Virus record (IMG/VR): IMGVR_UViG_2541047759_000001 | Length of the DNA: 64,000 bases | Strand: one strand, 5' to 3' | DNA from: a virus | Lineage: Duplodnaviria; Heunggongvirae; Uroviricota; Caudoviricetes | Shown: positions 45,035 through 46,218 of the stretch, piece after piece | Layout of the letters: each line of letters opens with the position of its first letter | Numbering within the stretch: the stretch's first letter is position 1 | The notes under the pieces: model-generated | Databases searched by the model: none | What the model was told of the DNA's origin: nothing | The model's input: the letters and a program-made list of their open reading frames with translations, nothing else | Translations under genes and position numbers: made by a program

Positions 45035-45095
45035 AAAAGGTGAGCAGTATATGCAACGAAGGAGGAAACATCATTGCTGGCGGCATGGAAGGCAT

Positions 45096-45171
45096 GCAGG
45101 GTGTTGCTGAACCGTGTTGATACATCAACTGCACCTGATATTGAGTGGCCTACGAACCCTGTCAGGGAGTA
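45096..45171 (+). pseudogene. tfa: Tail fiber assembly (tfa) 3' fragment
   Basis: Encodes ...[32 protein letters not shown], the conserved Tfa C-terminus, with no upstream body. Confidence 0.6.
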
Positions 45172-45226
45172 ATCATTGGGATTATGCCGCAGCACGTCTT
45201 AAGCAAGAACGTGCTGCGGTTGGATG

Positions 45227-45895
45227 CTATTTTTTCCCTGAAGCGGAAAACATTACTACAGTACCTTGAACCTTGGTTTTAACATTCTCGAAATGCTCTG
45301 AGAGTATATGTGTTAAGCCTTCTTCGGAATCTTTTGTGTTTGAAAAGATGCCTTTCTGATTGTAAATGCGCATCAGTTTTTGACCGAAGCTATTGTGCAC
45401 AACTCCATCGCCAAGAATTGTGGCTCCGTATAGAGTTCCATCGTCAGTTAAGGCCTGCGCCGCATTGCGTATTACACAGCTTTTTGTAGATATATTTCCA
45501 GGCAGGCAGTGAAGAAGGTAAAACATGGAAATGGAATCAAATTGACCATGTAACGCCGCGGGATAAGGTTCAAAAACATCATGGCTAATTTTATGTTTAA
45601 TTTTTGATTCCCCTGCCCTTGTAGATGCCGCGTTCAGGCTAGCTTCGTTCAAATCCATTAAAGATATCAGACTACTCTCAGGTACGTGAGTAAGGTAAAA
45701 CCCAGTTCCAACACCAATATCCAGATGGTTGTTACCTAAATGTTCCAGAAAGTGTGGAAGAAGGTGTTCCTTTGTAGGACATCCCCATGCAAGCCGATTT
45801 GATACTCCCAAAACCCACCAGTCATAAAGCTTTAGGGTAAGTGGTGTGTAAATTTTAGCCCCATCATCTGTGTTTTTTTTCATTAATTTCACCAT
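45227..45895 (-). CDS. Class I SAM-dependent methyltransferase
   Basis: HLDIGVGTGFYLTHV glycine-rich SAM-binding motif; 222 aa. Confidence 0.7.
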   Translation of the reverse strand: MVKLMKKNTDDGAKIYTPLTLKLYDWWVLGVSNRLAWGCPTKEHLLPHFLEHLGNNHLDIGVGTGFYLTHVPESSLISLMDLNEASLNAASTRAGESKIKHKISHDVFEPYPAALHGQFDSISMFYLLHCLPGNISTKSCVIRNAAQALTDDGTLYGATILGDGVVHNSFGQKLMRIYNQKGIFSNTKDSEEGLTHILSEHFENVKTKVQGTVVMFSASGKK

Positions 45896-45951
45896 GTTAT
45901 AGTTTTATTTATGAATTAAATCAATTATGGCGATGAATTACAAGGGGTTAA

Positions 45952-46218
45952 ATGCTGCCGCAGCATAGCGATATTGAAATAGCCTGGTATGCTTCGATAC
46001 AGCAGGAGCCGAATGGCTGGAAGACCGTCACCACACAGTTCTACATCCAGGAATTCAGTGAGTATATTGCGCCACTGCAGGATGCTGTAGATCTGGAAAT
46101 CGCAACGGAGGAAGAAAGATCGTTGCTGGAGGCATGGAATAAATATCGGGTATTGTTGAATCGTGTTGATACATCAACTGCACCTGATATTGAGTGGCCG
46201 ACTTCACCTGCAGAGTAA
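45952..46218 (+). pseudogene. tfa: Tail fiber assembly (tfa) C-terminal fragment
   Basis: ...[47 protein letters not shown], Tfa C-terminal third only. Confidence 0.65.

Follow-up and report, generated by a model that had tools for sequence, protein, structure and literature searches.

Duplicated tfa 3' ends around a YbcY-type methyltransferase at the potB-side right end of a lambdoid Escherichia coli prophage

Exchange between lambdoid phages at the tail-fibre locus has been observed in the laboratory: phage lambda acquires Rac and Qin DNA through stf-tfa homology of 88–96% identity, at ~2e-6 and mainly by means of Red-beta (PMC3945230). The tail fibre assembly protein, Tfa, consists of a variable fibre-binding N-terminal domain and a conserved C-terminal domain with a proposed role in trimerisation (PMC9608196), so that homology between otherwise unrelated fibre modules persists exactly at the tfa 3' end. 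Here we describe a locus at which two such 3' ends lie in direct orientation on either side of a methyltransferase gene encoded on the opposite strand. It is contained in the IMG/VR record IMGVR_UViG_2541047759_000001, which was analysed as a window of 64,000 nt comprising a lambdoid Escherichia coli prophage plus the host flank at potB. The crossovers that we propose for the window would likewise have used diverged (85–96% identical) tfa/stf homology as their substrate, but those between lambda and Rac or Qin have been seen to occur whereas those in the window are read from natural breakpoints.

The closest described counterpart is found in prophage DLP12 of E. coli K-12. Window positions 45053-46198 (1146 nt) are 96.4% identical to DLP12 of strain C600, for which the Prokaryotic Genome Annotation Pipeline (PGAP) gives a partial tfa, a frameshifted class I methyltransferase and a second partial tfa, followed by appY and ompT. 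This trio we take to be tfaD, ybcY and tfaX of the K-12 gene map, and the record of phage PhiR26_1 names the methyltransferase gene 'putative uncharacterized protein YbcY'. The tfaD'-ybcY'-tfaX' unit of DLP12 and the window agree in gene order, orientation, the hairpin, the spacer between the methyltransferase and the second tfa piece, and the truncation of that piece; a tfa 3' end, a hairpin, a reverse-strand YbcY and a truncated tfa, at high identity throughout, thus recur in both. They differ in that the K-12 methyltransferase is dead and tfaX has an in-frame stop, in that the left tfa piece of K-12 is longer (Tfa residues 50–194) and abuts a terminase remnant, and in what lies downstream, which is appY-ompT in DLP12 and attR with potB in the window. 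In RefSeq, too, the PGAP annotation of a sequence 100% identical to the window (NMBU-W13E19) describes both pieces as 'tail fiber assembly protein, incomplete, missing N-terminus', that is, already as tfa pseudogenes. With annotations in K-12 and in the RefSeq entry for this sequence, the arrangement is already known and amounts to an ordinary scar of recombination with cargo inside; it carries little weight as a discovery and agrees with what is established about morons and mosaicism in lambdoid phages.

What the locus does offer is a worked example, in which 1.4 kb hold three module joints, all in the conserved tfa 3' end. We consider it very probable that it represents a mosaic, namely the right end of a lambdoid prophage that sits at the potB 3' end, put together from three modules with joints at tfa ends, with a moron as its cargo and with tfa fragments that do not work. 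The first module would be of the phage 21 type and would supply the side tail-fibre gene (stf), orf92 and orf97, with no tfa of its own, ending in a 39-codon tfa relic and a hairpin. The second would be a cargo unit of ~1 kb, the same as ybcY-tfaX of DLP12, made up of a reverse-strand, independently promoted YbcY methyltransferase and a truncated tfa. The third would be a tfa 3' end with the attR flank of a potB-integrating phage. The conserved last 120–180 nt of tfa, which encode the conserved helical C-terminal domain of the chaperone, may act as the homologous-recombination joint at which neighbouring lambdoid modules are swapped, and it would be because of this service as a module joint that the tfa 3' end is doubled. 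The anatomy of the locus, its breakpoints, its distribution, the fold class of the methyltransferase and the presence/absence alleles could all be observed directly, and from them we infer that the joins were made by Red- or RecA-type recombination.

Two tfa ends and three module joints

A sequence-only reading of the window had noted that the Tfa C-terminal coding end occurs twice in direct orientation, with the methyltransferase between the copies, and both the repeat search and Pfam place this far beyond chance. The direct repeat (45053-45153 and 46102-46202; 101 nt) is 85% identical between copies that lie 1049 nt apart, and the longest exact run common to both is 38 nt, from 45113 and 46162, respectively. 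Fragment 1 (45053..45172, plus strand) consists of the last 39 codons and the stop codon of tfa. With no start codon and with an in-frame stop just upstream (45041-45043) it is untranslatable as a gene, and it is best described as a pseudogene relic, of which a 32-aa open reading frame (ORF; 45074-45172) matches the Pfam family Caudo_TAP (PF02413) at E 5.8e-11 over profile positions 103-131 of 131. The second fragment, tfaX-like and here called tfa', is an 88-codon ORF on the plus strand (45952..46218) which matches Caudo_TAP at E 3.9e-25 over profile positions 75-131 of 131. Its homology to Tfa is confined to codons 32-88 (46045-46218), the first ~30 codons are not Tfa-like, and its 5' part overlaps the promoter region of the methyltransferase. 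Fragment 1 and tfa' are 87–90% identical to residues 156-194 and 137-191, respectively, of the PhiR26_1 Tfa, and by profile match both contain the C-terminal helical, oligomerisation domain.

The same reading had found no intact tfa body, and this was borne out when the full 194-aa PhiR26_1 Tfa was used as a tblastn query against the whole 64 kb, which returned only these two pieces and no trace anywhere in the window of the variable N-terminal fibre-binding domain that completes a Tfa of ~190–200 aa. Residues 1-30 of tfa' have no family match in Pfam, and the proteins that cover its N-terminus are all of 82-142 aa, with no longer protein found; this part of tfa' therefore does not derive from a recognisable full-length Tfa. 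Nor does either fragment stand directly behind a cognate stf with which it co-varies, as fragment 1 is parted from stf by orf92 and orf97, and tfa' lies beyond the reverse-strand gene. Neither fragment is a working chaperone gene, and we regard tfa' as a pseudogene for which a decoy role keeps a small probability.

The two fragments have separate histories, and in this respect the notion that they are two halves of one event did not survive comparison with related loci: fragment 1 is a relic that belongs to the fibre module, and fragment 2 travels with the methyltransferase. The junction between the orf97 stop codon and fragment 1, 'TGAAAAAGGTGAGC(A/T)GTATAT|GCAACG...', is common to phage 21, Tritos, PhiR49_2, 2G7b, ev243 and the window. 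What comes after the orf97-tfa relic differs: phage 21 has sitABCD, Tritos has pinR, PhiR49_2 has dinI, and 2G7b, ev243 and the window have the methyltransferase. A common junction followed by differing cargo identifies fragment 1 as an old relic that marks where the phage-21-type fibre module ends on the right; the module itself never had a tfa of its own.

The methyltransferase with tfa', for its part, is also found behind an intact tfa, directly in PhiR26_1 and by way of a catalase/ferritin-like block in O157:H7. Five contexts are nearly identical from the 5' end of the methyltransferase to the codons for 'VDTS' in tfa' (46176) and then run into four different continuations, with K-12 diverging earlier. 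Functional lambdoid phages are among the relatives, namely ev243, 2G7b and PhiR26_1: over window positions 44001-46176 ev243 is 99.8% identical, with fibre module, relic, methyltransferase and tfa' all as in the window, and in PhiR26_1 the unit follows an intact 194-aa tfa. In ev243, in 2G7b (Nesevirus) and in PhiR26_1 the sequence of tfa' after 'VDTS' is unrelated to that of the window and is followed by an alpha/beta hydrolase gene and ompT, whereas in the window 'VDTS' is followed by a complete tfa end and the attR flank.

The right-hand part of tfa' has relatives of its own. Window positions 46069-46500 match Stx1a phage EH2115 with 92.8% identity, and the final portion of tfa', together with the flank on its 3' side, matches the 3' end of the intact O104:H4 tfa at the same potB site. 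Taken together with the divergence at 'VDTS', these matches mean that tfa' is chimeric, with a crossover between 46069 and 46176; its 5' portion comes with the methyltransferase unit, and its 3' end from the phage of the potB site. There are thus three separate homology breakpoints, all of them in or beside tfa 3' sequence.

Three natural alleles at the potB attachment site document intermediate states. The first is that of O104:H4 2009EL-2071, in which stf is followed by an intact tfa and potB. The second is that of T309.Ta3, which has the phage-21-type module and the attR of the window but only one tfa fragment before potB, and which lacks the methyltransferase. The third is the window itself, which has the T309.Ta3 arrangement plus the 1049-bp unit. 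An empty or deletion allele was sought with a synthetic recombinant query, which was matched as a single piece in one genome, T309.Ta3; the tfa fragment there is itself a hybrid, PhiR49_2-like on its left and O104:H4-like on its right, and the alignment fits replacement of the fibre module in an O104:H4-type prophage as well as it fits deletion of the methyltransferase.

Other cargo is seen next to tfa ends in two of the loci compared. In EH2115, NleG-like (U-box) effector ORFs come first, with a lone tfa 3' fragment after them and then the same attR flank, which makes another cargo bounded by a tfa remnant; no intact lambda-type tfa was found in the 18.9 kb of EH2115 examined. In O157:H7 strain 2159 (extract 1331-5015) the intact tfa is separated from the methyltransferase unit by genes for a manganese catalase, two ferritin-like proteins and a general stress protein, and tfa' has an IS66 element behind it. 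Cargo accumulates stepwise at the tfa joint.

Several points weigh against a mosaic assembled in this way. No 'empty' junction leading from tfa' to the hydrolase gene was found in the phage collection, where all 11 records (7 phages) that have this junction carry the methyltransferase too, and the founding duplication that gave tfa-methyltransferase-tfa' is therefore not reconstructable. The recombination origin and the order of events that we propose are drawn from natural breakpoints, from the few loci fetched and from BLAST counts. A simple terminator scan found none, the promoter and terminators discussed below being consensus and energy predictions only. Finally, the 88-codon ORF of tfa' is intact and has a Shine-Dalgarno-like AAGGGG 4 nt before its ATG, so that expression of a peptide consisting of the C-terminal domain only is possible.

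Distribution and competing explanations

Among 5426 complete E. coli genomes compared, the methyltransferase is present in 3832 (~71%), always with at least 95% identity. Its junction with tfa' was found in 3437 genomes and the junction formed by the tfa 3' end, the hairpin and the methyltransferase in 3070, and the exact arrangement of the window, with the fibre module and potB included, in 233. The sequence-only reading had taken the arrangement to suggest past recombination at the tail-fibre locus; the three breakpoints do record such recombination, but it was not local or recent, since its outcome is widely fixed. The condition named there as refuting it, a fixed and conserved arrangement in all relatives, is nearly what is seen, with K-12 DLP12 equal and both junctions present in >3000 of the 3832 genomes.

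Given the intact ORF and its AAGGGG, it is tempting to speculate that tfa' is functional, and that an 88-aa trimerisation domain made in the lysogen interferes with the chaperones of rival phages or helps the resident one, in which case the pairing with the methyltransferase would have been kept by selection and would not be a matter of history. This has some attraction, as the 88-aa protein corresponds to a full-length PHROG family (phrog_2341, E 5e-61), many contigs have a called short form of 82-108 aa (998 contigs for P0021), the unit is strikingly conserved, and in K-12 genomic SELEX (systematic evolution of ligands by exponential enrichment) placed an RpoD site on the tfaX side (PMC3946193). 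We nevertheless consider it unlikely. The ORF is broken in K-12 by an in-frame TGA, in GZ04-0083 by a TAG and a 1-nt deletion, and in 2G7b, where it is divided into two ORFs; in most contexts the C-terminus after 'VDTS' is replaced by unrelated, variable sequence; and the N-terminal 30 residues belong, as noted, to no recognised family. Moreover, the predicted -10 element for tfaX overlaps the ATG, so that the transcript would lack its start codon, and PADLOC gave no defence match. An equally doubtful proposition is that the pairing is more than a scar in a broader sense, either because the 88-aa peptide poisons or hijacks the chaperones of rivals or because the flanking tfa homology serves as built-in arms with which the cassette could pass, through Red-type recombination, between any phages that carry a tfa.

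Alternatively, and as the sequence-only reading implied, one local event in this prophage could have produced both fragments, by insertion of a methyltransferase cassette into an intact tfa or by the splitting and partial duplication of a tfa, and they would be what remained of it as halves or duplicates. That both copies hold the same 3' end and are not complementary halves is difficult to reconcile with this, as is their identity of only 85% when the flanking unit is conserved at 97–100% elsewhere. The direct repeats do bracket the cargo exactly, and T309.Ta3 differs from the window by just the bracketed unit, but phage 21, Tritos and PhiR49_2 have fragment 1 and its orf97 junction and lack the methyltransferase, the methyltransferase and tfa' occur behind an intact tfa in PhiR26_1 and O157:H7, and the arrangement is present in >3000 genomes, that of K-12 included. 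A single local origin is accordingly very unlikely.

The methyltransferase gene

The gene between the fragments had been read as a class I S-adenosylmethionine (SAM)-dependent methyltransferase on the reverse strand, and Pfam and RefSeq both agree. It lies at 45227..45895 (minus strand), is annotated as a protein of 222 aa (WP_000239881.1 in RefSeq), belongs to the YbcY family, and is matched by the Pfam families Methyltransf_12, Methyltransf_23, Methyltransf_25 and Methyltransf_11. The annotated start is probably four codons too far upstream: the homologues and phrog_2132 begin at residue 5, and a GGTGA stands 5 nt upstream, which favours Met5 at 45883 as the true start and would give a protein of 218 aa. 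The lesion that makes ybcY a pseudogene in K-12 is a 2-nt deletion that removes precisely this Met5 ATG (window 45883-45895; K-12 extract 4826-4846).

The predicted structure (pLDDT, the predicted local distance difference test, 89.6) has the seven-stranded Rossmann-like fold and glycine-rich motif I of class I enzymes. Its best structural matches are JHAMT, PmtA, phosphoethanolamine methyltransferase, SgvM, BelI, CgnL, Coq5 and Rv0560c, so that the nearest structures are small-molecule or lipid methyltransferases, at 12–21% identity; among the matches listed in the structure search no entry is described as a DNA methyltransferase. Sequence searches for a function gave weak, below-cut-off matches only, to CpaM and RquA in NCBIfam and to JHAMT and UbiG in the PDB (Protein Data Bank; E ~1e-3). 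Judged by fold, the substrate is probably a small molecule or a lipid. A comparison of the methylomes of the lysogen and a methyltransferase deletion, which the sequence-only reading had suggested, is for this reason unlikely to be informative. PADLOC returned no significant match for the methyltransferase (mad2 at E 0.0033, 14 bits only) and none for tfa', orf92 or orf97.

The suggested methylome comparison presupposes that the gene encodes a phage DNA methylase that shields phage DNA from restriction. This is conceivable, as orphan DNA methylases are frequent in temperate phages and the protein is SAM-dependent. There is no PP dipeptide in the protein, however, and therefore no DPPY-type motif, and the combination expected of such enzymes, a motif IV of the form (D/N/S)PP(Y/F) or a PCQ motif together with a target-recognition domain, was not found in it. 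With neither a DPPY-type nor a PCQ motif, this explanation is not credible.

That the methyltransferase is acquired cargo, as had been suggested from the arrangement, stands up well. The region has a G+C content of ~41% (0.41-0.43) against 0.47-0.56 just upstream (44400-45150), the gene is on the opposite strand, a promoter-like site precedes it, it is present or absent at one and the same attachment site, and it has chromosomal relatives. The promoter-like site, found by consensus scan only, is a sigma-70 type TTAACC-16-CATAAT (45924..45951, minus strand) upstream of the gene, and genomic SELEX in K-12 has placed sites for the RpoD holoenzyme and H-NS in the spacer between ybcY and tfaX (PMC3946193). 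In Enterobacter, Salmonella and Yersinia the homologues, at 56–65% identity, stand alone on the chromosome, in unrelated non-phage neighbourhoods, and as these relatives are single chromosomal genes in non-phage contexts the methyltransferase is most likely a captured host gene, or moron. Its presence and absence between otherwise collinear phages and its deviating composition, with non-phage relatives, are what would be expected of one. The methyltransferase resembles the lambdoid morons already described (lom, bor, sitABCD of phage 21 and the exchangeable effector loci of Stx phages) in being a putatively autonomous gene with a promoter-like site of its own, GC-deviant, encoded on the opposite strand and variably present, and it occupies the position that is taken in relatives by sitABCD, pinR, dinI or NleG-like effectors. 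In the lysogen such a host-derived moron would probably methylate a small molecule or a lipid.

Of six related loci examined, five have an intact copy of the gene. Pairwise comparison of six close copies gave 0-2 synonymous and 0-2 non-synonymous differences per pair, so that the dN/dS ratio (non-synonymous to synonymous substitution) rests on too few differences to be more than a leaning towards purifying selection. The literature on ybcY, tfaX and tfaD consists of passing mentions, and no functional study was found. Over-expression of Hha affected the growth of a K-12 ybcY mutant in a manner not significantly different from that of the other prophage mutants tested (PMC2408971), a result limited by the fact that the K-12 allele is a pseudogene. 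The YbcY-type methyltransferase is thus an uncharacterised gene that is common in E. coli, and its broken K-12 allele may explain why it has been so little studied.

The locus might also be the remnant of an invertible host-range switch of the tail fibre, such as the Mu G, P1 C and e14/Rac/Qin Pin systems, in which the invertible DNA has alternative tfa copies on either side. It shares with them a duplicated tfa at the tail-fibre locus (a typical leftover of these systems), and the pinR recombinase gene directly behind the same tfa relic in the related phage Tritos is reminiscent of them. This possibility can be dismissed, as the copies are direct and not inverted, the locus has neither an invertase gene (none of its ORFs has an invertase match, and the intervening gene is the methyltransferase) nor flanking inverted crossover sites, there are no long inverted repeats (two weak pairs only, one of 21 nt at 76% and the other of 14 nt at 86%), and there is no alternative C-terminal exon of stf.

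Layout of the prophage end

The late operon of the prophage ends with J (37882-41574), followed by lom (41642-42241), which is intact in the window and frameshifted in the annotation of NMBU-W13E19 (extract 314-842), although the two are 99.8% identical elsewhere in the compared stretch; either the window stems from another assembly, then, or an error or mutation is present in that record. The side tail-fibre gene of the phage 21 type (42393..44456, plus strand; 687 aa) has a lambda-Stf-like N-terminus and a differing distal part. It matches Pfam phage_tail_N (E 1e-66), the NCBIfam GTA_spike_fiber domain and PHROG tail families, and a 687-aa fibre gene is likewise annotated in phage 21, PhiR49_2 and T309.Ta3. 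Positions 42750-43050 of the gene hold a low-complexity repeat rich in Ala, Ser, Thr and Lys (AAKKSETAA, SETNAK), with an AT skew of up to 0.71. The small gene orf92 (44453..44731, plus strand; phrog_1361, E 2.5e-39) always follows this type of fibre and is syntenic in phage 21, ev243, PhiR49_2 and T309.Ta3. The last gene of the fibre module is orf97 (44741..45034, plus strand; phrog_1443, E 6e-58), whose predicted product is a small membrane protein; the phage 21 annotation reads 'putative membrane protein, 2 TMDs' (transmembrane domains).

Two GC-rich hairpins are associated with the tfa ends. Hairpin 1 (45186..45220), with a stem of 15 bp, lies between the convergent fragment 1 and methyltransferase; its folding energy is -28.6 kcal/mol (z -3.7) on the plus strand and -25.4 kcal/mol (z -3.9) on the minus strand, and it is terminator-like, without a canonical U-tract. 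It accompanies the tfa end in PhiR49_2 and the methyltransferase in O157:H7. Hairpin 2 (46255..46284), downstream of tfa', gave -30.5 kcal/mol over the 86-nt stretch tested (z -2.6) and also stands behind tfa in O104:H4, where the gene is intact, and behind the one fragment in T309.Ta3.

Two annotations of this region deserve mention. A 45-aa ORF (45145-45282, plus strand) that runs over hairpin 1 and the 3' end of the methyltransferase gene is a 'hypothetical protein' (WP_001309429.1) in a near-identical RefSeq record, and the matching ORF is called a 'nucleocapsid protein' in K-12 records; the ORF itself seems to have been called in error. In some genomes, that of GZ04-0083 among them, PGAP places an 80-nt 'DinI family' pseudogene in the spacer between the methyltransferase and tfa' (~45971-46050, minus strand; extract 4931-5010). 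The idea that the 5' part of the 88-codon ORF, or its antisense, goes back to another gene was rejected, as Pfam at E values up to 10 had no match to the one strand or the other and the PhiR49_2 DinI as a tblastn query gave noise only.

From tfa' the prophage continues through its right end up to attR (46219..46467). Prophage-free genomes, that of MG1655 among them, match the window only from ~46468 (query position 269), within the last codons of potB, and the prophage therefore ends there. The host side of the locus consists of potB, potA and pepT, of which potB (46450..47313, minus strand) is the gene at the integration site; its last ~6 codons are supplied by phage DNA, so that here the protein ends in ...KKVSELDD. 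The same phage right end was found in 918 of the 5426 genomes, and some genomes have a different prophage at the potB site, with homology to the window from 46436.

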